From Minisyncoccota bacterium (GTDB lineage Bacteria > Patescibacteriota > Minisyncoccia > Minisyncoccales > Minisyncoccaceae), in contig JAQVLU010000001.1 of assembly GCA_028703995.1 (NCBI GenBank), forward strand, positions 1-30,215: a DNA stretch of 30,215 bases. Direction: 5' to 3'. Of this stretch, positions 6,271 through 26,888 are shown piece after piece. Below the pieces are notes generated by a model. The model searched no databases, had not been told where the DNA came from, and worked only from the letters and a program-made list of their open reading frames with translations. Each line of letters begins with the position of its first letter. Position 1 is the first letter of the stretch. Both the position numbers and the translations under genes were made by a program.

Positions 6271-7386
6271 ATGAAAAAACAAATACTACTTCTTTTATTA
6301 ATAATTCTAATCGCCTCTATTTTTATACTAAATAAAGAAAAAAAGGCTCCTTCTTTAGATGAAAAAATAGGAGAAATGCTTGTTTTAGGTTTTAGAGGTT
6401 TAGAAGTAGATTCTTCTTCAAAAATCATTAACGACATTAATAAATACAATCTCGGAGGAATAATTCTTTTTGATTACGATGTTCCTTCTTCAAGTCCGAT
6501 AAGGAATATAGAAAGTAAAGACCAAGTAAAAAAACTCATTTCTGATATAAAAAAACTTACGAATGAAAACCTATTAATCGCCGTTGATGCTGAAGGCGGT
6601 TACGTCAACAGATTAAAAACAAAATATGGCTTCACAAATATAAAAAGTGCCTTAGAAATGGGGCAAGGAGAAGTATCAGAAACTTTCAACCAAGGTTTAA
6701 TCTTAGGAGAGGAGCTTAAAGAGCTAGGCTTTAACGTTAACTTTGCCCCTGTTGTTGATGTTAATATAAACGAAGATAACCCTGTTATCGGATATTTGGA
6801 AAGATCTTTCTCAAAAGACCCTGAAGAAGTTTATACTCACGCAAGTTCTTTTATTGATGCCATGCATGAAAATAATATTATGACTGCAATTAAGCACTTT
6901 CCTGGGCACGGTAGTTCTGAAAGCGACAGTCATTTAGGACTAACTGATGTAACAAATACTTACAATAAAGAGATTGAGCTTTTGCCTTATAAAAAACTAA
7001 TAGAAGAAAACAAGCTAGACATGATTATGACTGCTCACATTATAAATAAAAATATTGACTCGGAAAATCCAGCCACCTTGTCTTTAATCTTCCTTAAAGA
7101 TATTTTAAGGGGTGAATTAAAATATAATGGCGTTATTGTTTCAGACGATATGCAAATGGGAGCCATCGCTGATAATTTCGGTTTTGAAGAAAGTCTTATT
7201 AAGGCTATTAATGCAGGATGTGATTTATTGATATTTTCAAACAATAATAAAGAGTATGACGAAAATATCGCCGAAAAAGCAGTTAAAATAATAAAGGAAG
7301 CTGTTTTAACTGGAGAAATAGAAGAAGCTCAAATAAATGAATCTTATAATAGAATTAAAAAATTAAAAGAAAACTATAATTTATAA
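6271..7386 (+). CDS. nagZ: Glycoside hydrolase family 3, beta-N-acetylhexosaminidase (NagZ-like), signal-anchored
   Basis: Motifs AVDAEGGYVNRL, NFAPVVD, KHFPGHG, DSH (His/Asp dyad loop), MTAH and SDDMQMGA. Confidence 0.88.
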   Translation: MKKQILLLLLIILIASIFILNKEKKAPSLDEKIGEMLVLGFRGLEVDSSSKIINDINKYNLGGIILFDYDVPSSSPIRNIESKDQVKKLISDIKKLTNENLLIAVDAEGGYVNRLKTKYGFTNIKSALEMGQGEVSETFNQGLILGEELKELGFNVNFAPVVDVNINEDNPVIGYLERSFSKDPEEVYTHASSFIDAMHENNIMTAIKHFPGHGSSESDSHLGLTDVTNTYNKEIELLPYKKLIEENKLDMIMTAHIINKNIDSENPATLSLIFLKDILRGELKYNGVIVSDDMQMGAIADNFGFEESLIKAINAGCDLLIFSNNNKEYDENIAEKAVKIIKEAVLTGEIEEAQINESYNRIKKLKENYNL

Positions 7387-8195
7387 ATTCCTGGGACATC
7401 TTTTCCTCCTCTTATGGCGCTTTTGATTTCAGCCATATTCACCTCTGCCGCCCTTTCTCCTTCTTTAATTGTTTCCTCAACTTTTCCTTGAAATATTTTA
7501 TAGAATCCTAAAATCCCATAATCTTCAAAATAAGGATCAATTAGAATATCAGCGTCTTTAAGTTCCCAATTTGATAAATTATGTTGAAGAATAGAAACAG
7601 ATCTCTCAGCCATGGCATAAATATTTTTTTTGCCTTGCCCAATTTTATCTTCAATCCTAACTCCAATAATAATATCTGCTCCCATATCTCTCAAAACAGC
7701 AACCGGAACTGGAGAAGATAACCCTCCGTCAGCTAGTTCTCTTTTTTTATATTTAACAAGTTCAAACATAAAAGGAATTGTCATGCTTGCCCTTAAAGCA
7801 AGAGCTACGTTTCCTTTTCTAATTCTTACTTGTTCTCCTGTTTTATAATCAGTTGCAACGATACATAAAGGAATATCTAAATCTTGAATTTCTTTATCTT
7901 TAAAAATATTATCTAAAAAATTAGCAACTTTTTTGCCTTTAAAAATTCCTCCTTTAAAAGAAATGTCGACGAGTGATTTTATTTTATTAAAATCAGTAAT
8001 AATTTTTTCAACTTCGTCTATGTTTTGATACAAGGAATACAAAGCACCAACAATAGCTCCGGCAGAAGAACCAGAGATGTAATCAATAGGAATCTTGTTT
8101 TTTTCAAGAACTTTAATAACTCCTAGATGAGCATAACCTTTCGCTCCTCCGGAACCTAAAGCCAAACCTATTTTTTTTCTATTTTTATTTTCCAT
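7374..8195 (-). CDS. Patatin-like phospholipase (RssA/NTE type)
   Basis: Oxyanion loop LALGSGGAKG, nucleophile motif GSSAG and the DGG motif. Confidence 0.9.
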   Translation of the reverse strand: MENKNRKKIGLALGSGGAKGYAHLGVIKVLEKNKIPIDYISGSSAGAIVGALYSLYQNIDEVEKIITDFNKIKSLVDISFKGGIFKGKKVANFLDNIFKDKEIQDLDIPLCIVATDYKTGEQVRIRKGNVALALRASMTIPFMFELVKYKKRELADGGLSSPVPVAVLRDMGADIIIGVRIEDKIGQGKKNIYAMAERSVSILQHNLSNWELKDADILIDPYFEDYGILGFYKIFQGKVEETIKEGERAAEVNMAEIKSAIRGGKDVPGIYKL

Positions 8196-8214
8196 TAACT
8201 AAATAATACTAAAA

Positions 8215-9420
8215 CTAAATACTTTGTGCAACAGCATAACCTGTAGTAAAACACATTTGAAGGTTAAAACCTCCAGACTCACCGTTTAAATCAATTATTT
8301 CTCCGGCAAAATATAAATTTGCGACTAATTTTGATTTTAATGTTTTGGCATCGATTTCTTTTAAAAGTATTCCTCCCTTAGTTACCATTGCTTTTTCAAA
8401 ACCTAAAAGACCAACAACATTAAACTCAATATTTTTTATATTCTTAACTAATTTTTTTCTTTGTTCTTTATTAATATTTCGACAAATCTCATTTTTATCT
8501 ATTCCTGAAAAATTAATAATAACTGGCGCTAATTTTAAAGGAAGTCTTCCTATTAAAACATTGTTGATTGTTTTTTTAATGTTTTCATCAAACAATTCCA
8601 AAAGTTCTTTCTCTAAATCTTCAGACCTCTTTTTTGGAAAAAGATCTAAAAATATTTTATCTTTTGATTTTACTTTTTGACTTAAGTTTAAAATGAGTGG
8701 GCCACTCAATCCAAAATGAGTACAAAGAACATCTCCTCTAATTTCTTTTTCATTGTTTAATTTAACTCCTACGTCTTTTAGAGTTACTCCTTTCAAAACA
8801 CTAATCCACTTCTCTCTTATTTCTATTGGTGTTAAGGCAGGACTTAAAACGCTTACCTTGTGTCCCATTTTTTTAGAAAAAGCGTATCCGTTAAAGCTAG
8901 AAATATTGTTTGGATAAGATTTTCCTCCGGTAGCAATTAAAAAATTATCAGCAAAAATTTCTTCATTATCTGTTAATAAAACTTTTTCTATTTTTTTATT
9001 CTTAAAAAGAAAATCAGAAACTTCTTTATTTGTAATTACGGTTACTTTATTTTTCTTAAGTTCACTTTTAAAAAAGTTTAAAACGTCTTTTGAATTTTCT
9101 GACTTTGGATAAACCTTACCCTCTTCTACTTTTAAAGAAAAACCTCTTTTTTCAAAAAAATCTATAAGCTCCTCTGGTCCAAATAAAGACATTGAAGATA
9201 ATAAAAAATCCCCTTGTTTTCCAAATTTAGAAACAAATTCTTTTTTTGTTAGTCCTTTAGATGTAAGATTACATCTTCCTCCTCCAGTTAAAAGTAGTTT
9301 TTTTCCAATGTCTTCGTTCTTTTCAATAAGAACTACTTTCTTATTTCTTTCTCCTGAAGCGATAGCGGCCATTATGCCCGCTGGACCCCCTCCTATAATA
9401 CATAAATCATATTTAAGCAT
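8215..9420 (-). CDS. HI0933/BaiN/YhiN family FAD-dependent oxidoreductase
   Basis: Motifs IIGGGPAG, GKKLLLTGGGRCNLT, ATGGKSYP, THFGLSGP, AMVTKGG and GEIIDLNGESGGFNLQ. Preferred start is the ATG at 9420. Confidence 0.9.
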   Translation of the reverse strand: MLKYDLCIIGGGPAGIMAAIASGERNKKVVLIEKNEDIGKKLLLTGGGRCNLTSKGLTKKEFVSKFGKQGDFLLSSMSLFGPEELIDFFEKRGFSLKVEEGKVYPKSENSKDVLNFFKSELKKNKVTVITNKEVSDFLFKNKKIEKVLLTDNEEIFADNFLIATGGKSYPNNISSFNGYAFSKKMGHKVSVLSPALTPIEIREKWISVLKGVTLKDVGVKLNNEKEIRGDVLCTHFGLSGPLILNLSQKVKSKDKIFLDLFPKKRSEDLEKELLELFDENIKKTINNVLIGRLPLKLAPVIINFSGIDKNEICRNINKEQRKKLVKNIKNIEFNVVGLLGFEKAMVTKGGILLKEIDAKTLKSKLVANLYFAGEIIDLNGESGGFNLQMCFTTGYAVAQSI

Positions 9421-10480
9421 TGCTTTTAATTTCAATGACGTCTCCGTCTTTAACTACATATTCTTTCCCTTCTGTTCTAATAAGACCTTTTAATCTTGCT
9501 TCTCCGTATGTTTTAGAATTGTAAAGCTCCTCCCAATTAATAACATCTGCTTTTATAAAACTATCTTTAAAGTCAGTATGAATTACTCCTCCAGCATCAG
9601 GAGCTAAACTTCCATTTTTAAGAGTCCATGCCCTAGTCTCGTCTTCTCCTGTGGTCAAAAAAGTAATTAATCCTAAAACTTTATAACATTCTTCAATCAA
9701 ATAATCTAATTTAGAATCTTTTATCTGAAGTTCTTTTCTCTCTTCTTCACTTAATCCTTCAGCATCTATTTCTTCTTTTATATTAATAATAATATATTCC
9801 CAATTATTTTTTTCAAACTCTTTTTTCATTTCTAGAGAAACATCTTCTTCATTTCCGTTTAAAAGATAAACTCTTTTTTTGTAAGTTAATAATTGATATT
9901 GTTTCAATAAATTATCTTCCTCCTCTTTAAAATCGTAATCAATTAAGACTTTTCCTTGTTCTAAAATCCCTTTTATTTTATTTAATAATTCTGCTTCTTT
10001 TTCGTCTTCTTTTTTAACTAAAGATTTCATCTTTTTGTTCACTGTTTCGATTCTTTTTTCAATTGTCATCAAATCCTTTAAAGCCATTTCCATATCTAGA
10101 ATCTCTTTGTCTGAAATTGGATCTATTTTAGGCCTTACATTCAAAACGTTATTATCATTGAAGCATCTTAAGACATAAAGAATCGCATCCACTTCCCTAA
10201 TGTTAGCTAAAAATTGATTTCCTAACCCTTCCCCCTTGTTTGCTCCTTCAACGAGTCCAGCAATATCAACAAACTCTATTGTCGTATAGATTCTTTTTTT
10301 TGAATTCATTAAATCAGCCAAAAGATCTACTCTTCTATCCGGAACAGTTACTACTCCAACGTTAGGATCAATCGTACAGAATGGATAATTAGCACAATCA
10401 ACCTGTTTTTTGGTAATCGCTTTGAATAAGGTAGATTTTCCTACATTTGGAAATCCAACAATACCTATATGTAATGACAT
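9413..10480 (-). CDS. ychF: Ribosome-binding Obg-like ATPase YchF
   Basis: Motifs GIVGFPNVGKST, NYPFCTIDPN, DIAGLV, GEGLGNQFLANIRE, AGGVIHTDF and EGKEYVVKDGDVI. Confidence 0.95.
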   Translation of the reverse strand: MSLHIGIVGFPNVGKSTLFKAITKKQVDCANYPFCTIDPNVGVVTVPDRRVDLLADLMNSKKRIYTTIEFVDIAGLVEGANKGEGLGNQFLANIREVDAILYVLRCFNDNNVLNVRPKIDPISDKEILDMEMALKDLMTIEKRIETVNKKMKSLVKKEDEKEAELLNKIKGILEQGKVLIDYDFKEEEDNLLKQYQLLTYKKRVYLLNGNEEDVSLEMKKEFEKNNWEYIIINIKEEIDAEGLSEEERKELQIKDSKLDYLIEECYKVLGLITFLTTGEDETRAWTLKNGSLAPDAGGVIHTDFKDSFIKADVINWEELYNSKTYGEARLKGLIRTEGKEYVVKDGDVIEIKSNA

Positions 10481-10531
10481 AAATCTTTAATTATTATTAT
10501 AGAAACACTCTAACTTTTAAAAAAGCAAAAG

Positions 10532-11362
10532 TCAATTAATAATTAAGCTAATTTCTTCTTTCAGTTTATTTAAATAGTTTCTATTAACTTTACTTTCTAA
10601 TGTTTTAATTTTTTCTTCAGTCAAGTTATTAATTAATAAAACATTTTCTTCAGCAAAAAGCTGGAGATAGTTTTTATTAAAAGAAGGCAAAATTGTTATT
10701 GGATACAAATTGTTATTACTAATAATAGTTTCTAGACCCTCCTTCTCTGGATAATTCCAACCAAGTATTTTAATATTTTTACACTTAGCATAACGAATAG
10801 CTTTTTCCGTAAATTTTTCGTTAGTAACTACCATTGTCTTGATCTCACAATTTAAATTATTACTTTTGATATCATCAAGAACCGCAAAACTTTTAAGCAA
10901 AACATTAACATCAATTCTTTCCCCTGTTCCATTTCTGTATTTACACTCTCCTAAATGTTTTGTTGTTTTTGTTTTAACAAGAAAATCAATTTCATAAGAA
11001 ATACATTTCCCTTGTATGATTCTATTATTAGTTACTTCGTAGCCTAATTTTTGAAGAATTTCTTTAATGAATTTTTCAAAAACAAAACCTTCTGGTCCTA
11101 ATCTTTTAATGGCGTACTTTAAATCAAACCTTAAGGAAGAGACTTCTTTTTCTTTCTCTAAATATTTCTTAGCTATTTTGTAAATTTCAAAGGTGGAAAT
11201 ATTCGGACGAACTTTTTTTCTAATAATATCAGTAATTTTTTGAGCAATAATTTCGCTCGCTCCGGCTCTTAACATAGACTGATAAACTTTTTCTGAAGAA
11301 AATGGCTCTGTTTCGCCTAGAGAATTAATAATATTTATTTTATCTATTGTCTCCATCTCCAT
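10532..11362 (-). CDS. ATP-cone domain fused to an Mrr-like PD-(D/E)xK restriction endonuclease domain
   Basis: N-terminal ETEPFSSEKVYQSMLRAGA...ISTFEIY is ATP-cone-like. The C-terminal part has GFVFEKF, EIDF...GECK, VVTNEKFTEKAIRYA and LGWNYP. The start may be 11356. Confidence 0.78.
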   Translation of the reverse strand: MEMETIDKINIINSLGETEPFSSEKVYQSMLRAGASEIIAQKITDIIRKKVRPNISTFEIYKIAKKYLEKEKEVSSLRFDLKYAIKRLGPEGFVFEKFIKEILQKLGYEVTNNRIIQGKCISYEIDFLVKTKTTKHLGECKYRNGTGERIDVNVLLKSFAVLDDIKSNNLNCEIKTMVVTNEKFTEKAIRYAKCKNIKILGWNYPEKEGLETIISNNNLYPITILPSFNKNYLQLFAEENVLLINNLTEEKIKTLESKVNRNYLNKLKEEISLIIN

Positions 11363-11669
11363 GAACCTTATCTCTTTCTAATCTTGAATAAAGTTTAGCA
11401 AGATTGCCTTCAGCAACATCCTCAAGAGTTAAACCAAGCTCTTTTGATAAATTGGCAATATACCAAAGAACATCACCTAATTCTTTTTTGATTTCTTCTC
11501 TTTTCTCTTCGGTAACCACACCATCATTATCTCTAATAACTTTTTTTATCTTTTCTGCCACTTCTCCTGTCTCTCCAGCAAGTCCTAGTGTTGGATAAAT
11601 AAAATTACTACCTACGTTTGGATAAATCGCTGTAGCTCTAGCTTTTTCTTGGTATTCGTTTAAGTTCAT
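11340..11669 (-). CDS. MazG-like nucleoside triphosphate pyrophosphohydrolase (single domain)
   Basis: LGLAGETGEVAEKIKK...ELGDVLWYIANL carries the ExxE...ExxD metal-binding motif; ends in KLYSR...GDGDNR. Confidence 0.9.
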   Translation of the reverse strand: MNLNEYQEKARATAIYPNVGSNFIYPTLGLAGETGEVAEKIKKVIRDNDGVVTEEKREEIKKELGDVLWYIANLSKELGLTLEDVAEGNLAKLYSRLERDKVHGDGDNR

Positions 11670-12996
11670 GTTTTTTATTTTTTATTTTTTTATTCTTCTT
11701 ATCTTTTTTACTAATAATATATAACAATAATAATGCTAAAATTGTTATTCCGTAACCAACAATTATCTCGGCCATTATCTTAAAATCTAATTTACTATCA
11801 ACAATTAAAATGATCTTTTTGTTTTCTTTGCTTAAATTATTGTCCTTAATTGCAATCAAATTTAAATCATATAAGCCTGGTTTTAAATCCTCTAAATAGT
11901 AAACGAACTGACCATCAGAAGAAGTTTCTAAAACTTCTTGTTTAAAAAAATCTTCTCCATTAATAGAGGTTATCACTTTCGTATCTTCCGATTCAATATA
12001 TCCAAAAATATAAACATTATTTTTTTCTAAAACAGCTCCCGAAAATTGTGGAGAAGAAACCCCTTCTACTTTAAATGAAATTTCTTTTTCAATATAATTT
12101 TTAGCTTTATCGTAAGCTCTTAAAATAACTTTATAAGTTCCCGCTTCTAAAAAAGAAAAATCAAAACTTTCAGAAGTTAAATATTTTTCATCAGTTGAAG
12201 GAATATATATTTCATAAGATAAGTCATCGTTTTTTTCAAATTCTATAATGTTTTTTTGTATAGAAAAATTAAAATCTTCTGGTTTTTTTGTATCAATCAT
12301 TATTCTTTTATTTTCAATTTCGCTCCAACCATCTTTATTAAAACACCTTATATGAAAATAAAAAATTCCATCATCAAGCTCAATCTCCTTCTCATTTATT
12401 ATTGGCTCGGTATACTCTACCGAAGGATAAGAGAATTCGTTCTCGTCTATTAATATCTTAATTTTTGAAGCATCTTTAGGAACCGTCCAATTAAGTCTAA
12501 CTTTACTTTCATTATAAAAAACATCTGAATCGGGATGAGTTGATGATTCAATATTAAAAAGACTTTCGCTAAAAGAGTTAATTCCTTCTAAAGAATAAAG
12601 CTCATCTTCGGCAAGAATCGTTCCAGAGTTCAAGTCTAAATTAAAATCAGCATTATTGTTTTTCTTAAAAACTAAACTAAAGATACTATTATCTAAAAGG
12701 GAATCAAAAACTCCACTAAAATAAATCTGATTTTCTTCGTATAAAAAAGGCTCTTTGATCCATTTATCAAAAGAAGAGTTGAAGCCTAAAAACTCAAAAG
12801 AGTTAGAATCAAACGAAAGAACTCCTTCAATGGCTTTAATAATTAAATCTTTGTTATCTAAACTAATTTCTACTTTAAAAGTTTCTCCCAAATTGACTTC
12901 CTTTGGCGGTTCATAATTTAAGGAAAAAGCGCTTGCTTTTAATAAAGGAAGAAATATTAAAGCTAATAATAAAAGGATAAGGTTTTTCTTTTTCAT
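11638..12996 (-). CDS. Secreted surface protein with a cohesin-like N-terminal domain, Ig-like beta domains and a C-terminal TM anchor
   Basis: Signal peptide (ASA-F), EVNLGETFKVEISLD...AIEGVLSFD, SSTHPD...NW, DGIFYFHIR, a C-terminal hydrophobic helix and a Lys-rich tail. Confidence 0.6.
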   Translation of the reverse strand: MKKKNLILLLLALIFLPLLKASAFSLNYEPPKEVNLGETFKVEISLDNKDLIIKAIEGVLSFDSNSFEFLGFNSSFDKWIKEPFLYEENQIYFSGVFDSLLDNSIFSLVFKKNNNADFNLDLNSGTILAEDELYSLEGINSFSESLFNIESSTHPDSDVFYNESKVRLNWTVPKDASKIKILIDENEFSYPSVEYTEPIINEKEIELDDGIFYFHIRCFNKDGWSEIENKRIMIDTKKPEDFNFSIQKNIIEFEKNDDLSYEIYIPSTDEKYLTSESFDFSFLEAGTYKVILRAYDKAKNYIEKEISFKVEGVSSPQFSGAVLEKNNVYIFGYIESEDTKVITSINGEDFFKQEVLETSSDGQFVYYLEDLKPGLYDLNLIAIKDNNLSKENKKIILIVDSKLDFKIMAEIIVGYGITILALLLLYIISKKDKKNKKIKNKKHELKRIPRKS

Positions 12997-12997
12997 A

Positions 12998-14158
12998 TTA
13001 TTTAAATTTAAAATAATTTAATTTTCCAACTTTAAGAATGGTTTCTTTTTTTATGGTTTTTATTTCTAAATTAATATCAAATATTTTTTCTCCATCAATA
13101 GAAACAGCTCCTGCTTCAAACAATTTTCTTACTTCGCTTTTTGATTTTTTGAGAAGATTGGCAATTAACTCTACTAGATTCTTTTCAGAACTTATTTCAA
13201 CCTCTATATAATCAATGTCTTCCAACTTTCTTTTTTGAAACTTATTTTCAAAATCTTTTTGGGCTTTCTCAGCTTCTTCTTTAGAAGTATATGTTTCAGT
13301 TATATTAAAAGCAATTTTCTTTTTAATGTTAATTGGATTCTCACCTTTTTTTAACAAATTAAAACAATTTTGTTTTTCTTCTTCAGAGAAAGAAGTCGCT
13401 AGTTTTAAATACTCTTCAATAAGATCATCTTTAATAGACATTGTTTTTCCATAAATATCATTAGAGCTATCGGTCAATCCAATGTAGTTTTTTAAAGATT
13501 TACTCATTTTTTGAACCCCATCAAGACCTCTCAAGAGAGGCACGCAAACAGCGACCTGAGGTTCTTGTCCATATTTTTCTTGCAAATATCTTCCAATTAA
13601 AAGATTAAATAATTGATCTTGTCCTCCGATTTCAACATCAGCCTTTATTTTAACAGAATCGTACCCTTGGATTAAAGGATAAATAATCTCGTGTAAAGAA
13701 ATAGGAACTCCTTTTTCAAAACGATCATGAAAGTCATTCCTTTCCATTATTTGTTGCACTGTGTATTTAGAAAGAAGAGAAATGAACTCATTAAAATCCA
13801 TAACAGAAAGCCACTCAGAGTTTCTTCTAACCTCTATTTTTTCAATATCTAAAATCTTTCCCAATTGATTGATATATGTTTTTGAGTTTTTTTCTATTTC
13901 CTCCGCTGATAGTGTTGGTCTTGTTTTATCTTTGCCAGAAGGATCTCCTATTAAAGCCGTATAATCACCGATAATGATTATAATTTTATGCCCTAAATCT
14001 TGGAACTCTTTTAATTTGCGAATAGCGACTGCGTGTCCTAAATGTAAATCTGGAGAAGTAGGATCAAATCCCATTTTAATATTTAAGACTTTCCCACTAT
14101 TTATTTTTTTAATAAGTTCCCCTTCTGGTAAATTAATTTCAATATTTTCTAATATCAT
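12998..14158 (-). CDS. tyrS: Tyrosine--tRNA ligase
   Basis: Motifs GFDPTSPDLHLGH (HIGH), YPLIQGYD, GGQDQLFN and KMSKS, plus a C-terminal S4-like domain. Confidence 0.96.
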   Translation of the reverse strand: MILENIEINLPEGELIKKINSGKVLNIKMGFDPTSPDLHLGHAVAIRKLKEFQDLGHKIIIIIGDYTALIGDPSGKDKTRPTLSAEEIEKNSKTYINQLGKILDIEKIEVRRNSEWLSVMDFNEFISLLSKYTVQQIMERNDFHDRFEKGVPISLHEIIYPLIQGYDSVKIKADVEIGGQDQLFNLLIGRYLQEKYGQEPQVAVCVPLLRGLDGVQKMSKSLKNYIGLTDSSNDIYGKTMSIKDDLIEEYLKLATSFSEEEKQNCFNLLKKGENPINIKKKIAFNITETYTSKEEAEKAQKDFENKFQKRKLEDIDYIEVEISSEKNLVELIANLLKKSKSEVRKLFEAGAVSIDGEKIFDINLEIKTIKKETILKVGKLNYFKFK

Positions 14159-14164
14159 ATTCCT

Positions 14165-14173
14165 ATATTAGCA
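14165..14173 (-). promoter_or_regulatory. Putative extended -10 promoter of tyrS
   Basis: Minus strand TG-C-TAATAT ends 6 nt before the ATG at 14158. Confidence 0.4.
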
Positions 14174-14199
14174 TAAAAATTTATTTTGTAGAAGATTTT

Positions 14200-15489
14200 C
14201 TAAGTAATTATTTTTAAGGTTTTTTCCATTCTTCTAATGTCAGCTAATAGTTTTGATCTATCTTGATTAAACAAAACAAGATTGCAAACAAATTTTCCTC
14301 CATTTTTAGCGAACTTGCAAACATCTCCTATTTTTTTATTAATTTTAATTTCTTTGAAAGATTCTAATTCTTGCACTTTTTTGACTCCCTTAATTGCTTT
14401 TAATCTTCCTTCTTTTTTAGCATAAAAAAGAAAAACTGCTGTGTGCCCTTTTACCTTTCTTGGAATAATTGGCTTTTGAGGAATTCTAATTAAGACATCA
14501 TTGAGAGCATGATTAATTCCATAAGACAATTGATACATAAGATGCCTATATCCACCCATTCTTGGACCAATCTCTATAACCTTCCAACCATCTTCAAGCC
14601 TCATAAGCTCTATGTGAACAGTTACGCTTCTTAATCCTAAAGCGTGAACTCCTTTTTTTGCTACTTCTTGCGCTTTTTCGCTAGAACTTTTTTTAATATT
14701 CGCAGGTAAGATTCTTTGATAACCAAAAAAATCATCAAAACCAATTTGTTTCCCTGTTTTAACTTTTACTAATGGACAAAAATATACTTTTCCCTTAGAG
14801 CTTACGTAGCCATCGATTGAAAACATCTCTCCTTCCATAAACTGCTCTACTAAAAGTTCGGGCTCTTTCTTTCGATCATTTTCTTTATATATCTTTCTAA
14901 TCACTTTAAAAGATTCTTCTAAAGTTTGTTCCAATTCTTCTTCGTAATAGCAAACAGAGATCAAAAGACTTGAAGCTAAACCCGATGGTTTTACGACAAG
15001 TGGAAAGCCTACTTTTTCTTTTACATTTTTAATAGTTTCTTTAGAAAAATTTTTAACAATAGAAAATTTTGGCGTAATTTTTTTATCATAAGCATTAAAT
15101 CTTTTTCTCATCATTGTTTTCTGAATTGCCCAATCAAGTGATTCTGAGGTTGGAGTTCTTAAATAAGGAACATTCGGCACTAGCTTTGAGAATGAATCAA
15201 TATTTATTTCACTGCGGCAAGTAACTGCCAAAATTTCATTTTGATAAGGAAGTAATGCTTTTTGAATTTTTATTGGATCTGAGAAATCACAAGATAAATA
15301 AATTATATCACTCGCATACTCTTTAGCTTCTCCAATTTCAATTCTTCTTGTGTCACGAATAATTGCTAACCTAAAACTCTTTTTATTTTTCTTTCCGTAT
15401 TCATTAAGATCCTTTCTCATAACCTCTGGATCATCTGGAATATCGTTTACAAAAAGAATTATATCTGGTTCTTTTTTTATTGGTGTCAT
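14200..15489 (-). CDS. ATP-grasp domain ligase (L-amino-acid-ligase-like), substrate unknown
   Basis: Motifs K..MR..F, FPLVVKP, LLVEQFMEG, HIEL and VIEIGPRMGG. Confidence 0.8.
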   Translation of the reverse strand: MTPIKKEPDIILFVNDIPDDPEVMRKDLNEYGKKNKKSFRLAIIRDTRRIEIGEAKEYASDIIYLSCDFSDPIKIQKALLPYQNEILAVTCRSEINIDSFSKLVPNVPYLRTPTSESLDWAIQKTMMRKRFNAYDKKITPKFSIVKNFSKETIKNVKEKVGFPLVVKPSGLASSLLISVCYYEEELEQTLEESFKVIRKIYKENDRKKEPELLVEQFMEGEMFSIDGYVSSKGKVYFCPLVKVKTGKQIGFDDFFGYQRILPANIKKSSSEKAQEVAKKGVHALGLRSVTVHIELMRLEDGWKVIEIGPRMGGYRHLMYQLSYGINHALNDVLIRIPQKPIIPRKVKGHTAVFLFYAKKEGRLKAIKGVKKVQELESFKEIKINKKIGDVCKFAKNGGKFVCNLVLFNQDRSKLLADIRRMEKTLKIIT

Positions 15490-15559
15490 GTCTAAAATTT
15501 ATATTTAATAATACTTCAAAAGTATACTAGATATAAAAATAAATTCAAGTCTTTTTTGC

Positions 15560-15593
15560 AAAAATTAAAACACTTAAAAAAGTGTCTTAATTT
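15560..15593 (-). terminator. Intrinsic terminator hairpin downstream of SIMPL copy 2
   Basis: 14-bp inverted repeat (15562-15575 and 15580-15593) with a 4-nt loop. The single mismatch is a G-U pair on the minus-strand RNA, and the 3' arm is U-rich. Confidence 0.6.
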
Positions 15594-15603
15594 ATTAGTT
15601 ATC

Positions 15604-16326
15604 TTATTTTAATACAAAGTTAGCTTTAACGGTAATCATGATTTCTTTCTTAACTGTTGAGGTATCATAAGTACCATAGCTTGAAATATCAGTTGAATCT
15701 GGTTGCATAACTTGTACTACCCCCATGTCCGCGCTCTTAAGAGTTCCTACTTTTCTATCAGTACTAGCGGCAATGGCTTCGGCTCTTTTTTGAGCATCTT
15801 TTACTGCTTCTGGTAAAAGATTAATTCTTTCTTCTGGAAGTTTTGTATAATAATATTCTGGTGAATTAGTTTGATAAATAACATCTAACTTAATAAGATC
15901 GTTTGCTTTTTGTGACAAGCTTTTTACCTTTTCAATATCAGTTGAAGTAATAATCACTTCTTGAGTCAAATTATATTGTTTCTCTTCGTAAGAGCTTTTA
16001 TTATAATTATACTCTTCATACATTCTAATTGGAGAAAGAATATATTCTTCTTCGGTTATATTATTATTTTTTAAAAATTCAACAACTTTTGCTTCGTCTT
16101 GGGCCATTAAAGTGTATCCTTCTTTTAATTTATCTTCAAAAACAACTCTTGAAAAATTAGAAGTCAATTTTGCTAAATCTGAATCAACAACTTTTATAGC
16201 TGAACCAGTAGTTGAAAGTGTGTTATCCAAATTTTGTATCTTAAAAAGATTATTTGAATAGATTAATACAGAAGCCATTAAAGCAATTGAAAGTATTACG
16301 GATGAAATGATTATTGTTTTTTTCAT
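15604..16326 (-). CDS. SIMPL domain protein (DUF541), copy 2, different subfamily from copies 1 and 3
   Basis: TM anchor, LSTTGSAIKVVDSDLA, EAVKDAQKRAEAIA, LKSADMGVVQV and KEIMITVKANF. Confidence 0.8.
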   Translation of the reverse strand: MKKTIIISSVILSIALMASVLIYSNNLFKIQNLDNTLSTTGSAIKVVDSDLAKLTSNFSRVVFEDKLKEGYTLMAQDEAKVVEFLKNNNITEEEYILSPIRMYEEYNYNKSSYEEKQYNLTQEVIITSTDIEKVKSLSQKANDLIKLDVIYQTNSPEYYYTKLPEERINLLPEAVKDAQKRAEAIAASTDRKVGTLKSADMGVVQVMQPDSTDISSYGTYDTSTVKKEIMITVKANFVLK

Positions 16327-16363: not shown

Positions 16364-17680
16364 TCAAAGTAAATAGGTTTTTTCAAGCTCGGCAAGAGTA
16401 GTTTCTGCCGAATCCTTCAACTCTTCCTTTAGCGCTAAAGCCCTTTCAATTTCTCCGTGATTAATAAAAATTCTTTTAGGTTTCATATTCAAAACCCATT
16501 TTTTAATTTTTACTGAATCAGCATGAGAAGAGAAAGAATCAATCTTTTCAACTTCAGCTAGAATAGGAACCCGAACTTCATTAATAAAAATATCTTCTTT
16601 GTTTTCTATCTTTCTTCCAACCGTTCCTTCGGCCTGATAAGAGTTTAGAAGAATGACATTATTTTTGTCTTTTCCATATTGTTTTATATAAAAAGGTATT
16701 CTTCCCCCAGAACACATTCCTGAACCAGCAATAATTATTTTAGGAACTGAGGCTTTTAATATTTTAAAAGAATCTTTTACGTCTTTTGTTTCTTTAAAGC
16801 CTTTAAAGTCAAAAATATCATCCCCTCCATCAATAATCGATATAGACTCTTTGTCAAAAATATTTTTATACTCTTTATATATTTTTGTTGCTTTGATGGC
16901 AAGAGGGCTATCTAAAAAAATATTAATGTCTGAAATGTATTTATTTTCAACAAAATTATTAATTTCAAATAATAATTCTTGGGTTCTTTCTATACTAAAA
17001 CTAGGAATCAAAAGAACTGCTTTCCTTTGGATAACTTCTTTTATAATTAGTAAAAGCTTCTCTACTCCCTCTTCTCTTTTTTTATGAATTAATCCTCCAT
17101 AAGTAGATTCTACAAAAACAATGTCAGCAGAATCAATAAACTCAGTGTCTTTGACAATAGGAGCATTATCATTTCCTAAATCTCCTGAAAAAACTAATTT
17201 CTTTCCCTCGACAAAAACTTCAAAAATAGTTGAACCTAAAATATGTCCTGCATCTCTTAATTTAATTTTAATGTTTTTAAAATCAAACTCTTCCCCATAG
17301 TTAAAACAATTAAATAGTCTCATCAAACCTAAAACGTCTTCGTATTTATACAATCCTATTCTTTTGTCTTTTTCAAAAATACGGACAGAGTCGTAAAGAA
17401 TTATTTCCGCCAAATCTTTTGTTGCCTTAGTTGAAAAAACTTTCCCTGAAAAACCTTCTTTGTATAATTTGGGTAATCTTCCGGAATGATCTAAATGAGC
17501 ATGAGTTAATAAAACAAAGTCTATTTTTTTAGGATCAAAATTAAAATCTTTCATATTCTTCTCATAAGAATTCAATCCTTGAAACATTCCAAAATCAACT
17601 AAAAAATTTGCCTCCTTTGATTCTATAAGTATAGAGGAACCTGTGACCTCTCCTGCAGCTCCTAAAAAAGATATCTTCAT
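16364..17680 (-). CDS. Metallo-beta-lactamase / beta-CASP family ribonuclease
   Basis: Motifs GAAGEVTGS, THAHLDHSGRLP, AGHILGS, SGDLG, ESTYG, FSSHAD and HGE. Confidence 0.9.
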   Translation of the reverse strand: MKISFLGAAGEVTGSSILIESKEANFLVDFGMFQGLNSYEKNMKDFNFDPKKIDFVLLTHAHLDHSGRLPKLYKEGFSGKVFSTKATKDLAEIILYDSVRIFEKDKRIGLYKYEDVLGLMRLFNCFNYGEEFDFKNIKIKLRDAGHILGSTIFEVFVEGKKLVFSGDLGNDNAPIVKDTEFIDSADIVFVESTYGGLIHKKREEGVEKLLLIIKEVIQRKAVLLIPSFSIERTQELLFEINNFVENKYISDINIFLDSPLAIKATKIYKEYKNIFDKESISIIDGGDDIFDFKGFKETKDVKDSFKILKASVPKIIIAGSGMCSGGRIPFYIKQYGKDKNNVILLNSYQAEGTVGRKIENKEDIFINEVRVPILAEVEKIDSFSSHADSVKIKKWVLNMKPKRIFINHGEIERALALKEELKDSAETTLAELEKTYLL

Positions 17681-17734: not shown

Positions 17735-18553
17735 ATGAAATTATATATTTTACCATTTGATCATCGTTCTTCTTTTATTAAGCTTTTAAACAAGCCTGAT
17801 AAAAAGAAAGTTCAAGAATTAAAACAAATCATTTTTGATGGATTTCTAAAAGTTTACAATAATTATCCAAAGAAAAAAGACTTAGGCATCTTAGTTGATG
17901 AAAAATACGGAGAAGAAATAATTAAATTCGCTAAAGAAAAAAAGATTACTTTTTGTCTGCCAATAGAAAAAAGCGGTAAAAAAGTTTTAGAGTTAGAATA
18001 CAAAGACTTAAAAAAAATCAAAGAAATAAATCCTGATTACATTAAGATATTAATTAGATATAATCCTTTAAATATTAAAACAAACAAAAAACAACTTCTT
18101 ACTCTTAAGAAAGTTGATGCTTTTTGTTTAAAAAATGAATATAAGGTAATTTTAGAATTATTAGTTCCTCCCACAAAAAAAGATTTAAAATTAACCAAAG
18201 ACTATGATCGATATTTAAGGCTTGAAAGAACTATCGGCGCCTTAAAAGAAATACAAGAAAACATTAAAGTTAATATTTGGAAATTAGAAGGCTTTAATGA
18301 AAAAGAATGGAAAGAAATTAATAAAATAACAAAATCTAAAATAATATTTTTAGGTAGAGGTGAATCAAAAAATAAAGTAATAAAATGGCTTCTTCAAGCC
18401 AAAAAAAGTAAAAACATTATTGGTTTTGCTATCGGAAGAACAACTTTCTTAGAGCCAATAACAAAATACATTGAAGGTTCTTTTTCTAAAGAAAAAGCAT
18501 CTTTAAAGATAGCTAATAATTTTAAATATTTTATTGATCTTTTCAATAAATAA
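17735..18553 (+). CDS. DUF2090 family protein (stand-alone homolog of the IolC C-terminal domain; class I aldolase-like TIM barrel)
   Basis: Motifs LYILPFDHR, GILVDEKYG, PIEKSG, KILIRYNP, WKLEG, LGRG and GFAIGRTTF. Confidence 0.82.
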   Translation: MKLYILPFDHRSSFIKLLNKPDKKKVQELKQIIFDGFLKVYNNYPKKKDLGILVDEKYGEEIIKFAKEKKITFCLPIEKSGKKVLELEYKDLKKIKEINPDYIKILIRYNPLNIKTNKKQLLTLKKVDAFCLKNEYKVILELLVPPTKKDLKLTKDYDRYLRLERTIGALKEIQENIKVNIWKLEGFNEKEWKEINKITKSKIIFLGRGESKNKVIKWLLQAKKSKNIIGFAIGRTTFLEPITKYIEGSFSKEKASLKIANNFKYFIDLFNK

Positions 18554-19718
18554 TAATTTCTCCTTTTTCTATTTCCTCTTTAAGTTCCGAAGAAGAAATA
18601 GAAGCTAAAAAATTAAGGATACTTTTATCTCCCAAACTTGGCTGAGCCTTTTCTTCTTTTATGGGGAAAATACTGTAAACTTCTTTTCCTTCAACAAACT
18701 CTAAACCAACCATAATCCCTTGTTGCGTTTCTTCTGAAAAATATTGATCAAAGATAAAATTACCCAAAGAATAAAAAATTAATTTATTCTTATATTTTTC
18801 TACATTTTGAATTACGTGAGGATGTCCTCCGATAATTAAATCCGCCCCATTATCAATCATGAGGTGTGCTAATTCTTCTTGGAATAAAGAAGCTTTATGC
18901 TCGTATTCATTTCCAAAATGAGGCAAAACTACTAAGAACTTGTCGCTATATTCTTCCTTTATTTTTTTAATATTTTCTATGATCTTCTCATTATTACAAT
19001 TAAAATCAAAAGTCTTGTTTACTCCATAGAAAACAACTCCTGAAACAACCGCAATGTCAATCGCATCGCAAGTAACAGGATCTCCAAAATAAGAAATTTC
19101 TTTTTCGTTCAAATATTCTTTTGTTTCAATAAGGCCACTTGCATTCATATTAGAAGTATGGTTGTTAGCAAGAGAAAGAATATTGAAATTGTTTTCTTTA
19201 AGTGCTGAAGCAACCCTTTTATCAAAAGAAAAACTCATAGATGTTGCTGAAATAAAAACGGGTTCGCTCACAATCGGTCCTTCTAAATTTCCAATAAGAT
19301 TGTCTACTTTTTTTAAATAAGTTTCTATTTTAGAAAAAGGATAATTGAAATCATCATTTTTTTTCATTAAGAGTTCTACCCCCCTATCAAACATCATATC
19401 TCCTACGAATAAAAAATTAGGTTCAACTGATCCGCCACATTTATTCATAAAGTAAGAAACTCCATAAGAAGATAAAGTCTCTTTAAAAAAATCAGTTTCT
19501 ATAAATATTTTATTGTTGCAATCAAGAGTATCTAAAAAAGTCTCTAGAATAATTTTTTCTTTTCCTACTGAAACTATATTCTTTTCATAATCTATAGAAA
19601 AGAATTCAGAATCTTTTAAAGAAATATCCTTACCGGAAAAAGGAACTTCTAAATCTGAATCTATTCTATTAAAGAATAAGAAAGAAAGACAAATAATTAA
19701 AATTAATTTTTTAAACAT
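18543..19718 (-). CDS. CapA/PgsA family secreted metallophosphoesterase
   Basis: Motifs FVGDMMFDRG, NLEGPI, LANNH, PHFGNEY, IIGGHPHVIQ and YSLGNFIFDQ, with an N-terminal signal. Confidence 0.88.
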   Translation of the reverse strand: MFKKLILIICLSFLFFNRIDSDLEVPFSGKDISLKDSEFFSIDYEKNIVSVGKEKIILETFLDTLDCNNKIFIETDFFKETLSSYGVSYFMNKCGGSVEPNFLFVGDMMFDRGVELLMKKNDDFNYPFSKIETYLKKVDNLIGNLEGPIVSEPVFISATSMSFSFDKRVASALKENNFNILSLANNHTSNMNASGLIETKEYLNEKEISYFGDPVTCDAIDIAVVSGVVFYGVNKTFDFNCNNEKIIENIKKIKEEYSDKFLVVLPHFGNEYEHKASLFQEELAHLMIDNGADLIIGGHPHVIQNVEKYKNKLIFYSLGNFIFDQYFSEETQQGIMVGLEFVEGKEVYSIFPIKEEKAQPSLGDKSILNFLASISSSELKEEIEKGEIIIY

Positions 19719-21170: not shown

Positions 21171-22355
21171 CTATTTTATTCGCGCAAGTCTTTTTTGATA
21201 GTTTATAGCGAAACGATGCGCCTCATCTCTTAAAGAAAGAAAAAGATTTTTATTGTTTTCAATAAAATCAATAGTCTCCTTATTATCTCCTCCATATATG
21301 AATTCATCTTTTTTTCTATCTTTTCCCTTAGCAATACCAAATACAAAAATATTTTTAAACATTTTTTTTCCTAGATTAACTTGCGCTCTTCCCCCATCTA
21401 TTAAAACAATGTCTGGAACGCCCCACTCTTTATGCTTAAGCCTTCTTTCAAAAACCTCCCTCAAACAATCAATATCGCTTTGCTTAAAAACAGTTTTAAT
21501 TTTAAATTTTTTATACTCTTTCTTAATCGGTCCATTTAAATCAGAAACAACCATACTCCCAACCTTGTTATCGTTCCCTAAATTAGAAATATCATAACCC
21601 TCTATTCTTAATTCTTTTTTCTTCTCATCAAAATAGTCTTCAACAAAACTTTTATTAATTAAAGAAGCGTCTTGTATCTTTTGTAATCTAAAAATTTGAA
21701 ACTTTACTCTGTTAGCCTCTTCGAAACGCTTTTCCTTAGCAAAAGCTTTCATTTGTTTTTCTAGATTTTTAATAACTCCTTTTTTGTTTCCATTTAAAAA
21801 TTGTATTAATGGTTTGATAACCCTTTTTTCATACTCCTCTTTATCAATTTTATTTATGCAAACCCCCAAACATTTTTTAATTTGATAATCAAAGCAAGGC
21901 TTTTGTTGATTAGGATTACATTTAGAAACAAAAAACAAAAAGTGCAAAAGCTTCATCATTTCTGCCGTTTTAATATTCGGATAAGGTCCAAATATCTTTT
22001 TCGCTTTTAACCCTTTCAAGTTATGTTCTCTAATTGCTTTCAATTTTGGAAAATCTTCCTTAGTCAAATAAAAATAAATCCAACTCTTGTCATCCTTTCC
22101 AATAACATTGTACTTAGGTTTAAATTTTTTAATATATTTTGCTTCTAATATAGAAGCTTCAATAACTGATTCTGTAACAATATACTTAATGTCATTGATT
22201 TCTTTTATTAAAACCTCAATCGGCCTCATGTTTTTAGAATGATTAAAATAACTTCTTACTCTACTTTTTAAAGAAGTTGCCTTTCCAACATATAAAAGCT
22301 CTTTATCTTTATAAAAAAGATAAATTCCTGATTTGTCTGGTAAATTTTTAATCAT
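21171..22355 (-). CDS. uvrC: Excinuclease ABC subunit C, short form (394 aa)
   Basis: GIY-YIG (GIYLF..YVGKA..LKSRVRSYF), a 4-Cys region, a UVR coiled coil, and an RNase H-like domain (RIEGYDIS, LIDGG, LRDEAHRFA). Confidence 0.92.
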   Translation of the reverse strand: MIKNLPDKSGIYLFYKDKELLYVGKATSLKSRVRSYFNHSKNMRPIEVLIKEINDIKYIVTESVIEASILEAKYIKKFKPKYNVIGKDDKSWIYFYLTKEDFPKLKAIREHNLKGLKAKKIFGPYPNIKTAEMMKLLHFLFFVSKCNPNQQKPCFDYQIKKCLGVCINKIDKEEYEKRVIKPLIQFLNGNKKGVIKNLEKQMKAFAKEKRFEEANRVKFQIFRLQKIQDASLINKSFVEDYFDEKKKELRIEGYDISNLGNDNKVGSMVVSDLNGPIKKEYKKFKIKTVFKQSDIDCLREVFERRLKHKEWGVPDIVLIDGGRAQVNLGKKMFKNIFVFGIAKGKDRKKDEFIYGGDNKETIDFIENNKNLFLSLRDEAHRFAINYQKRLARIK

Positions 22356-24880
22356 AAAACTTTTTTCAAATACTTCCCTGTATAAGAAGTGCTTGTTTTA
22401 AAAGATAAATCTTCAGGAGTTCCTTCGGCAATTACTTCGCCTCCAAAATCTCCTCCGTTAGGACCAAGATCGATTACCCAATCAGCTGTTTTGATAAAAT
22501 CTAGATTATGCTCAATAACAAGGACCGTGTTCCCTTGATCAACTAATTTTTGAATCACTTCTATTAACTTTTTAACATCTTCATAATGAAGCCCTGTTGT
22601 TGGTTCATCTAATAGATATAATGTCTTTGTTGTATTTTTTTTAGAAAGTTCTTTACTTAATTTAACTCGTTGTGCTTCTCCACCCGACAACGTTGTTGCA
22701 GACTGACCTAATCTTAAATATCCTAAACCAACTTCATTTAAAACTTTTAATTTATCGTAAATCTGAGGAATATCTTTAAAAAACAAAGCCGCTTCTTCTA
22801 TTGTTAAATTTAAAACTTCTGCGATATCTTTTCCTTTGTAATGAACTTCTAAAGTATCTCTGTTAAATCTTTTTCCCTTACAAACATCACAGACAACTTC
22901 TACATTTGGAAGAAAATGCATTTCAATTTCAATAACACCTCTTCCTTCACAATGCTCACATCTTCCTGAGGGCATATTAAAACTAAATCTTCCTGATTTA
23001 AACCCTTTAATTCTTGCTTCTTCTGTGGCTGCAAAAATTTCTCTTATATAATCAAAAACCTTTGTATATGTTGCTGGATTAGAACGAGGAGTTCTTCCTA
23101 TTGGAGATTGATCAATTTTTATTATTTTATCAATATATTCAAGATTTTTTATTTCCTTAACTTGTGTCTTATTTTTAAAACTTAATTTTTTATCAACCGT
23201 ATAATTATAGAGAACGTCATTCATTAAAGTTGATTTACCTGATCCAGAAACTCCAGTGAAACAAACGAATCTTTGAAGCGGTATTTTAACATTAATATGT
23301 TTTAAATTATTAGCAAAAGCATCTCTAATATCAAGCATTGGCATTAGCTTATCAACCATTCTTCTTTTTTTAGGAACTTCTATTGAAAGTTCTTTTCTTA
23401 AATATTTTCCAGTTAAACTTTTTTTAGAATCTCCTAAAATTTTAATTTCTGATTTAGGTTTAGTATTAAAAAGCATTGTTTCAAGCGGTCCAGAAAAAAC
23501 AATCTCTCCTCCATGCTCTCCCGCAAGTGGCCCAAAATCAACAATCCAATCAGAAGTTAAAATAGTGTCTTCGTCGTGTTCGACAACTATAATTGTATTT
23601 CCGATATCACATAGACTCCTTAATGTTTTAATTAATTTGTCGTTATCTCTTTGATGAAGCCCAATTGTTGGTTCATCAAGCACGTAAAGAGCCCCCACTA
23701 TTTTTGTACTAACTTGAGAAGCTAATCTTATTCTTTGCGCTTCTCCACCAGACAAGGTTCCAGACCTTCTATTTAAATCAATATAATTTAATCCAACATC
23801 TAACAAAAACTTCAACCTATTTTTAATTTCGTTTAAAATGTTTTCCGCTATTTCTTCTTCTTTTTTATTTAATTTTAAATTATTGATAAAATCAAAAGCA
23901 TCTTGAATGTTATAACTTGTAACGTCCCAAATATTTTTATTATTTATCCTTACGCTAAGAGCGTTTTTATTTAATCTTTTTCCCCCACAAACTGGACAAG
24001 GCTTATCTGAAAGGAAACTTTCTGTTCCAATACCTTTACAGTATTCGCAATATCCAAAAGGATTATTAAAACTAAACAATCTTGGTTCTATCTCAGGGAA
24101 ACTAAAACCACATTTAGGACAAGAATAACTTGTACTAAAAACATATTCTTTGTCTTCTGTTTTTAAAATACATAAACCGTCTGCTAAATCAATTGCTGTT
24201 TCTACTGCTTCACTTAATCTAAATTCAAAATCTTTATCTTTTTCTGTTTTATCAAATTTATCAATAACCACTTCTATATTATGTTTTTTACCTTTTTCAA
24301 TAATAATCCTTTCGGTCAGCTTTTTAATTTTCTTATCAATTCTCACTTCTAAAAAACCTGATTCATATAAATCTTGAATCAATTGATAATATTCACCCCT
24401 TCTTCCTCTAACAACAGGAGATAAGATTGAAAATTCAACCCCGTCTTTAATTTGATTTTTAATATTATCTACAATTTCGTCTAAAGACATTTTTTCAATC
24501 AAAACGTTACACTCGGGACAATAAGGTTTTCCTATTCTAGCAAACAAAACTCTTAAATAGTCATATATTTCAGTAATTGTCGCTACTGTTGATCTTGGAT
24601 TAGAGTTGTGAGCTTTTTGACTAATGGCAATTGCAGGAGATAATCCTTCAATTTCATCAACATCAGGTTTTTGCATTCCTCCTAAAAATTGTCTTGCATA
24701 AGTTGATAAAGATTCTAAATATCTTCTTTGTCCTTCGGCAAAAATTGTATCAAAAGCTAAGCTAGATTTTCCAGATCCAGAAAGTCCAGTAAAAACAATC
24801 ATTTTTTCTCTTGGTATTTCTAAAGAGATATTTTTTAGATTATGCTCCCTAGCTCCTTTTATAATAATTTTATTTTGCAT
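22352..24880 (-). CDS. uvrA: Excinuclease ABC subunit A, 842 aa, lacking the insertion domain
   Basis: GAREHNLKN, two Walker A motifs ([16 protein letters not shown]), two LSGGEAQR signatures, LDEPT motifs and Zn-binding CxxC pairs. Confidence 0.96.
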
Positions 24881-26879: not shown

Positions 26880-26888
26880 GGTAAACAA

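Follow-up and report, generated by a model that had tools for sequence, protein, structure and literature searches.

The question raised by this locus is whether a nuclease with a putative nucleotide-sensing domain works together with the nucleotide pyrophosphohydrolase encoded next to it, or on its own. The locus lies in a stretch of 30,215 nucleotides (nt) from a Minisyncoccota bacterium (GTDB lineage Bacteria; Patescibacteriota; Minisyncoccia; Minisyncoccales; Minisyncoccaceae), positions 1 to 30,215 of the forward strand of contig JAQVLU010000001.1 in the NCBI GenBank assembly GCA_028703995.1. This whole stretch is called here the window, and positions are counted from its first letter. 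In it, the gene of a MazG-type nucleoside triphosphate (NTP) pyrophosphohydrolase overlaps the start of a gene that fuses an ATP-cone to a PD-(D/E)xK nuclease core and a helix-hairpin-helix (HhH)-like domain. A preliminary description, made from the sequence alone, had proposed that the two genes form a module, consisting of a DNase switched by nucleotide levels and an enzyme that alters or sanitizes the nucleotide pool. The analysis presented here favors another answer: the fusion protein is probably a stand-alone, homodimeric DNA endonuclease controlled by adenine nucleotides, and MazG an unrelated house-cleaning enzyme that happens to be encoded beside it.

The fusion protein and its family

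The catalytic core of the fusion protein matches Mrr_cat (PF04471) over residues 92-199, with 27.1 bits (cut-off 21). The EID...ECK residues, which the preliminary description had considered intact, are E124-I125-D126 and E139-C140-K141, and the family bears this out: all 175 sequences have D126, E139 and K141, and 174 have E96. The relative with a solved structure is AF1548 of Archaeoglobus fulgidus (PDB 1Y88), a structural-genomics protein which was predicted to be a restriction-like endonuclease with the catalytic residues D38, E51 and K53 (2007 Global Ocean Sampling study, PMC1821046) and which has also been listed under Mrr_cat (PMC3424549). These three residues correspond to D126, E139 and K141 of the window protein. 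The likeness extends through the core and the C-terminal domain (residues 89-276; E 5e-23, Z 21.7, root-mean-square deviation (rmsd) 2.3 Å over 181 residues, 27% identity; Foldseek template modelling (TM) score 0.84 by target). The C-terminal domain scores 20.5 bits with AF1548-like_C (PF22357), just below the cut-off of 23.9 that many homologues pass, and it is counted as AF1548-like because the model aligns to 1Y88 through residue 276. Taken alone, it resembles the N-terminal domain of Rad51 (Z 8.0, rmsd 1.8 Å over 58 residues) and the HhH parts of Y-family polymerases. NCBIfam returned nothing informative for the nuclease.

The N-terminal domain is, as judged from profiles and from the predicted fold, an ATP-cone, and on this point the preliminary description is upheld. 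It matches PF03477 over residues 10-84 with 28.8 bits (cut-off 25.8), and with 32.3 bits when the genome is scanned, so both the ATP-cone and Mrr_cat stand above their Pfam cut-offs. A profile built from the N-termini of the family matches NrdD and NrdR at E about 2e-3. In the model, residues 5-79 adopt the fold of the solved cones, a beta-hairpin lid over a four-helix cone, and resemble seven of them from NrdB, NrdR, NrdA and NrdD at Z 7.0-8.5 and rmsd 2.0-2.5 Å (5olk 8.5, 7p37 8.4, 7agj 7.8, 9fzf 7.6, 9d3x 7.6, 8vhu 7.1 and 8p23 7.0); Foldseek retrieves NrdR cones at probability 1.0 and rmsd 2.0 Å. The only other ATP-cone of the genome belongs to the class III anaerobic ribonucleotide reductase NrdD (NRDD E 6e-148; contig C32, L082:1495-3273); a search of the assembly, which is 89% complete, revealed no cone of the NrdR type.

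The NrdR of Escherichia coli is a proven binder of ATP and dATP. Its nucleotide contacts are V51, K53, S54, E59, P60, F61, K65, L66, S105 and I108 (bioRxiv 10.1101/2025.03.28.645925), and this list was transferred through the alignment of the N-termini profile to E. coli NrdR. Nine of the ten positions are kept in the window protein (V51-I11, S54-S14, E59-E19, P60-P20, F61-F21, K65-K25, L66-V26, S105-T57 and I108-I60); the sole change is K53 to N13, and no residue of the Tyr131 type, which serves the outer site, is assignable. Among the 175 family sequences, K25 is found in 169, E19 in 156, F21 in 160 and T57 in 170. The preliminary description had warned that the loop reads NSLG (N13-S14-L15-G16) where a KR(D/N)G ligand loop is usual, and that nucleotide binding might be altered. 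The lysine is indeed missing, but the warning is weaker than feared: it is largely answered by the fact that even E. coli NrdR has KSND in the corresponding loop, and asparagine is common at position 13 of the family (69 of 175, or 39%, against 100 with lysine). Archaeal members retain the canonical KRDG loop. In the clade whose nuclease genes are linked to MazG, described below, 15 members have lysine and 9 asparagine, and the choice between the two residues does not track MazG linkage.

With regard to the whole protein, an AlphaFold model based on 21 homologues has a mean predicted local distance difference test (pLDDT) score of 88.8. As a homodimer, it reaches an interaction prediction score from aligned errors (ipSAE) of 0.67 against 0.00 for the best control, with three runs agreeing in 100% of contacts and a partner pLDDT of at least 86. 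The ipSAE mark was reached in calibration by 20 of 30 proteins solved as one-chain pairs and by 1 of 23 solved as single chains, counts that hold only roughly here, since the homodimer run used a supplied alignment and ATP. The predicted interface lies within the nuclease domain (residues 119-121, 152-164 and 187-195). The linker between cone and core is conserved (K82, L88-G89-P90, G92 and F95), and the last helix of the cone runs into the helix that bears E96.

Three near-invariant cysteines are also found in the protein: C120 (170 of 175 sequences; 11003-11005), C140 (168 of 175; 10943-10945), which lies inside the catalytic E-C-K motif, and C194 (168 of 175; 10781-10783). In the predicted homodimer, C120 and C194 of opposite subunits are in contact, and thioredoxin genes adjoin the nuclease gene in seven loci. 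A redox or metal role of these cysteines is possible.

The fusion protein is a new member of a family with existing entries in Pfam, NCBI and the ESM Atlas; the locus adds nothing to what is catalogued there. An exhaustive profile search of cluster representatives at 50% identity found at least 588 clusters at E <=1e-30, and the best 150 are nearly all full-length matches of 262-301 amino acids. At least 33 clusters of the ESM Atlas have the identical three Pfam families. A word-indexed search gave 98 full-length homologues, most of them with ATP-cone and Mrr_cat, with or without AF1548-like_C; the sources name these homologues "restriction endonuclease" or "ATP cone domain-containing protein". 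A strict motif was matched in 543 species-level genomes, among them genomes of Patescibacteria, several archaeal phyla, Actinomycetota and Nitrospirota. Within the order of the window, the nuclease is single-copy and present in 97 of 201 sampled genomes (48%), in an all-or-none manner by family; across the phylum it is found in 24 of 401 sampled genomes (6%). AF1548 itself departs from the full-length pattern, since its deposited and Swiss-Prot chain (O28724, 174-184 amino acids) starts inside the first core helix and lacks the ATP-cone. Full-length homologues from Archaeoglobus sp. (P0084 and P0089; 265 amino acids; L084:6001-6798) carry a canonical VRKRDG cone. The annotated open reading frame (ORF) of A. 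fulgidus may thus be truncated at its N-terminus, in which case the only structure of the family would be devoid of the sensor domain.

Table 1. Features of the nuclease locus, with positions in the window.
Feature	Position	Strand	Basis and details
ATP-cone/AF1548-type PD-(D/E)xK nuclease/HhH-like gene	10532-11362, stop codon included	minus	ORF, 276 amino acids; Pfam, 1Y88 match, AlphaFold model
ATP-cone domain, residues ~9-88	11099-11338	minus	PF03477, N-terminal profile, fold
PD-(D/E)xK nuclease core, residues ~89-218	10709-11098	minus	E96, E124, D126, E139, K141; Mrr_cat
C-terminal helical (HhH-like) domain, residues ~219-276	10535-10708	minus	Structure; PF22357 sub-threshold
MazG-type NTP pyrophosphohydrolase gene, single-domain	11340-11669	minus	ORF, 109 amino acids; PF03819
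Overlap of MazG 3' end and nuclease 5' end	11340-11362	minus	23 nt; sequence read directly
YchF GTPase/ATPase gene, downstream of nuclease	9413-10480	minus	Pfam
HI0933-like flavoprotein gene, downstream	8215-9435	minus	Pfam
Signal-peptide/Ig-like membrane protein gene, upstream	11638-12996	minus	ORF, 452 amino acids; weak Pfam hits only
Tyrosyl-tRNA synthetase (TyrRS) gene, upstream	12998-14158	minus	ORF

Gene neighborhood and the MazG gene

The fusion gene is part of an unbroken minus-strand string of genes in the order TyrRS, Ig-like protein, MazG, fusion gene, YchF and HI0933-like (Table 1). The MazG protein matches PF03819 at 53 bits (cut-off 22, E 4e-14), its translation shows the acidic ExxE ... 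ExxD metal-binding motifs, and relatives of 109 amino acids with 65-89% identity are plentiful in Patescibacteria. Pfam thereby bears out all domain assignments of the preliminary description. Both reading frames are located where the preliminary description had placed them, and so is their overlap, which shortens from 23 to 17 nt if translation of the nuclease starts at its second ATG (11356), preceded 9 nt upstream by AAGG; apart from these two, the nuclease ORF has no ATG, GTG or TTG ahead of the first beta-strand of the cone. MazG also overlaps its own upstream neighbor by 32 nt. By the longest-ORF rule (positions 40-30179), 12 of the 26 same-strand junctions of the window show an overlap, 7 of them of 11-32 nt, and the MazG/nuclease overlap is unremarkable in this context. 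The preliminary description had itself cautioned that in a compact genome such an overlap may not imply shared function.

The genome belongs to a Paceibacteria-type Patescibacterium and comprises 405 kb in 48 contigs, with 89% completeness. The G+C content of the window is low (~28%), and nearly all of its genes are on the minus strand. A scan of positions 8000-15700 gave 27 promoter-like sites, where chance alone would yield 33.8, which is uninformative, and no terminator-like sites on the minus strand within the gene string. As the preliminary description had stated, no DNA methyltransferase gene is found beside the nuclease. Three family searches covering the whole genome gave no match for PF01555 or PF02384 and a single DNA methyltransferase, a full-length enzyme of the C5 cytosine type (PF00145, E 1.5e-115), whose gene is on another contig (C40:1152-2045) and unlinked to the nuclease. 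According to Pfam, other genes of the window encode a GH3 glycosidase (6271-7386, among the few on the plus strand), a patatin-like phospholipase (7374-8195), an ATP-grasp ligase (14200-15489), a beta-CASP RNase/DNase (16364-17680), a PGA_cap capsule-synthesis protein (18543-19718), and UvrA and UvrB (22352-26888).

To place the adjacency of MazG and nuclease in a wider frame, 81 loci were compared, drawn from the best 80 of at least 543 species-level matches; 79 of them are included in the tree. The 25 closest loci have MazG upstream, in the same orientation as the nuclease, as part of a conserved block composed of MazG, sometimes thymidine kinase (4 loci), DUF308, the nuclease, YchF and HI0933. 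MazG and the nuclease are separated by the DUF308 gene in 20 of these loci; in sister lineages this gene encodes a membrane protein of 92 amino acids, and in the four loci with thymidine kinase that gene lies there as well (L006:3712-3990; L007:3126-3680). YchF follows the nuclease in 27 of the 81 loci and HI0933 in 20, so that the linkage of these two genes to the nuclease is as strong as that of MazG or stronger, and the synteny with both extends across 25 loci, down to ~41% identity of the nuclease. The TyrRS and Ig-like upstream neighbors are common only to the four closest loci (L002-L005). In the sister clade, the block is preceded by [FeFe]-hydrogenase large-subunit-like and NuoF-like iron-sulfur genes (L006:308-2573). 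For many of the contigs on which close relatives occupy this syntenic block (L003, L005, L007 and others), the record label is "Candidatus Saccharibacteria" or "Pacearchaeota archaeon"; gene content and the tree place these contigs with Paceibacteria-type genomes, and the record titles look unreliable.

In a maximum-likelihood tree of the nuclease, the MazG-linked loci form one clade (25 of 79; support 99/94) that requires one change. Direct adjacency is seen in five loci, the window among them, and these branch from within the group in which other genes intervene; it follows that the direct overlap is derived, most simply by loss of the DUF308 gene. The subclade of the window has lost the DUF308 and thymidine kinase genes from the block, and the direct overlap probably arose through the loss of the intervening DUF308 gene.

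Sampling of the order leads to the same picture. Among the 201 genomes, 97 have the nuclease, 39 a MazG orthologue and 21 both, against 18.8 expected by independence; 76 of the 97 genomes with the nuclease have no MazG orthologue, and a further 18 have MazG only. Adjacency of the two genes was seen in each of the 6 genomes from the window's own family, in none of the other 15 genomes of this sample that have both, and in none of 8 with a MazG paralogue. In the phylum sample, the nuclease and a MazG-family gene are near each other in none of the 11 genomes with both. Altogether, adjacency was seen in 0 of ~33 sampled genomes outside the window's family that have both genes. Across the order, MazG is conserved at 65-75% identity, against 40-46% for the nuclease.

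Where MazG is absent (55 loci), the neighbors are heterogeneous housekeeping genes. Counting two neighbors on each side, PDDEXK_1 (AddAB-type) was found 8 times, HD 7, DUF3467 6, thioredoxin 3 and DnaA 3, while an Archaeoglobus homologue sits between mechanosensitive channel and VIT1 genes. Methyltransferase, beta-CASP and nucleoside phosphorylase genes are not among the commonest neighbors of these loci, and Lactamase_B accounts for only 2; a recurrent linkage to beta-CASP or nucleoside phosphorylase genes, for which the preliminary description had suggested a survey, was thus not observed. In the loci and genomes sampled, the MazG adjacency is lineage-specific synteny in a compact genome and not a two-gene system, and the best reading of MazG is that of an independent house-cleaning NTP pyrophosphatase.

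Proposed mechanism, role and alternatives

In the mechanism proposed here, the nuclease domains would pair as a symmetric homodimer, as the model predicts, and so provide two active sites. The PD-(D/E)xK core would be a Mg2+-dependent endonuclease, and the HhH-like domain, judging from its fold, would grip the DNA backbone without sequence specificity. The ATP-cone would bind ATP or dATP and undergo an oligomeric or conformational change, as the cones of ribonucleotide reductases and NrdR do, in such a way that a given nucleotide or energy state would be required before DNA could be cleaved. A plausible route of allosteric coupling runs from the cone helix through the conserved linker to the E96 helix. 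The notion of a nucleotide-switched nuclease, which the preliminary description had put forward, is a reasonable reading because the fusion is real and conserved at full length; the paired MazG enzyme, on the contrary, is unsupported.

Known systems offer precedents for parts of this scheme. By analogy with the cones of NrdR, NrdA, NrdB and NrdD, whose fold it shares, the cone of the window protein would be expected to alter the state of the attached effector upon binding of an adenine nucleotide; here a nuclease takes the place of the reductase or zinc-ribbon repressor as the effector. The layout of Can2, Card1, Cdn1 and NucC, from type III CRISPR and from cyclic-oligonucleotide-based antiphage signaling systems (CBASS), is similar in that an N-terminal adenine-nucleotide sensor precedes a C-terminal restriction-fold nuclease, in a dimer or a higher assembly, and the catalytic domains superpose at Z 8-10. 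As an analogy, the sensor-nuclease layout of Can2 and Card1, with catalytic domains that superpose at Z ~10, may be taken as a further precedent for nucleotide gating. The differences are that the sensor of the window protein is an ATP-cone rather than a CARF or SAVED domain, that its presumed ligand is bulk ATP/dATP rather than a cyclic oligoadenylate second messenger, and that neither a signal-synthesizing partner gene nor a defence context was found at the nuclease loci. The core also resembles NucS/EndoMS (Z 10.9) and the archaeal Hjc (Z 6.4), which are likewise small and dimeric, and AddAB-type, Fpg and ExoVII genes are occasional neighbors of the homologues of the window protein. This is a similarity at the fold level only, and the N-terminal domain of NucS is missing.

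As for the biological role, we favor one in the maintenance or turnover of the cell's own DNA (repair, recombination or DNA recycling) over phage defence, since the gene is single-copy, stably inherited and located among housekeeping genes, and since no match to defence or phage collections and no mobile-element context were found. In this sense, no PADLOC family (a library of systems described by 2023) matched MazG or the nuclease at E <=0.1, a tblastn search of 50,697 phage records gave no homologue of the nuclease, and integrases account for only 2 of 103 downstream neighbors at the loci without MazG.

The alternatives have to be weighed against this stand-alone endonuclease. A module in which MazG would shape or sanitize the deoxynucleoside triphosphate (dNTP) or NTP pool sensed by the cone, with translation coupled by the overlap, is very improbable. 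The shared strand and overlap, the upstream position of MazG in the 25 related loci and the faint theme of nucleotide metabolism that the thymidine kinase brings to 4 of them would fit it, but the linkage has a single origin on the tree, is usually interrupted by DUF308 and does not recur in the sampled genomes outside the family of the window; moreover, co-occurrence is at the chance level, most nuclease genomes do without a MazG orthologue, the nuclease has an equally or more frequent neighbor in YchF, the conservation of MazG far exceeds that of its supposed partner, and overlaps are routine in the window. A stand-alone defence nuclease, either a type IV-like cutter of modified foreign DNA or an abortive-infection DNase triggered through the cone by a shift in ATP/dATP, also appears unlikely. 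It would agree with the Mrr_cat match, with the fold of the core, which after AF1548 is closest to AspBHI (Z 12.2) and MspJI (Z 10.5), with the resemblance to the ligand-activated defence nucleases cited above, with the lack of an adjacent cognate methyltransferase, and with a patchy presence in the phylum and an occurrence in both bacteria and archaea that suggest transfer. Like EcoKMrr, MspJI and AspBHI, the window protein has a catalytic core of the Mrr_cat type and stands alone without a methyltransferase. However, the N-terminal winged-helix or SRA-like domain with which those type IV enzymes bind modified DNA is missing (a Pfam scan at E <=0.1 gave no hit to an Mrr_N-type domain), the cone being found in its place, and the protein has instead an additional HhH-like C-terminal domain and a housekeeping-like context. 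Its single copy, its presence or absence by family within the order, its stable synteny, its neighbors, which are not defence genes, and the lack of PADLOC and phage matches speak against defence as well, and the genome's own C5 methyltransferase means that a nuclease dependent on 5-methylcytosine would need tight specificity.

The third alternative concerns the cone itself, which could be degenerate here, with a function limited to structure or oligomerization or with another ligand, the nuclease being constitutive or controlled otherwise, for example through the conserved cysteines. We consider this doubtful. The adenine-covering lysine of NrdR is N13 here, the Pfam score exceeds its cut-off by only 3 bits, and the near-invariant C120, C140 and C194, the contact of C120 and C194 across the predicted dimer interface and the thioredoxin neighbors would agree with it. 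On the other side, the remaining contact positions are kept and strongly conserved throughout the family, lysine and asparagine alternate at position 13 within single clades, which suggests that both are functional, and archaeal members have preserved the canonical loop.

Several points weigh against the stand-alone, nucleotide-controlled endonuclease preferred here. No paper was found on the fusion of an ATP-cone to a nuclease or on experiments with the AF1548 family, and nucleotide binding, substrate and regulation are putative throughout the family. The modification-dependent restriction enzymes AspBHI and MspJI are the nearest catalytic folds after AF1548, which fits a defence role too, as would the phylum-level patchiness. 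The homodimer score may echo a memory of 1Y88 or of related dimeric nucleases in the predicting model, and the predicted homodimer puts the cones at the periphery and is uninformative on how they act. Finally, with N13 at the position of the adenine-covering Lys53, the affinity or the ligand could differ.

Implications for the family

To our knowledge, regulation by ATP-cones is confined to the synthesis of deoxynucleotides, where they act in ribonucleotide reductases and NrdR. We put forward only tentatively, as somewhat less than an even prospect, that the cone of the window protein is a working allosteric switch on the nuclease and that the AF1548 family is the first ATP-cone effector outside ribonucleotide reduction. 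If this is true, DNA cleavage in ultra-small symbiotic bacteria and in some archaea would be licensed by the balance of ATP and dATP, and possible uses would be the recycling of DNA to nucleotides at low dNTP levels, or self-destruction when infection distorts the pool. A sensor wired to a DNA-cutting enzyme would extend the logic of the ATP-cone to the degradation or repair of DNA. Some of the smallest known genomes, which have no room for idle genes, retain this family, and for this reason it merits biochemical study.

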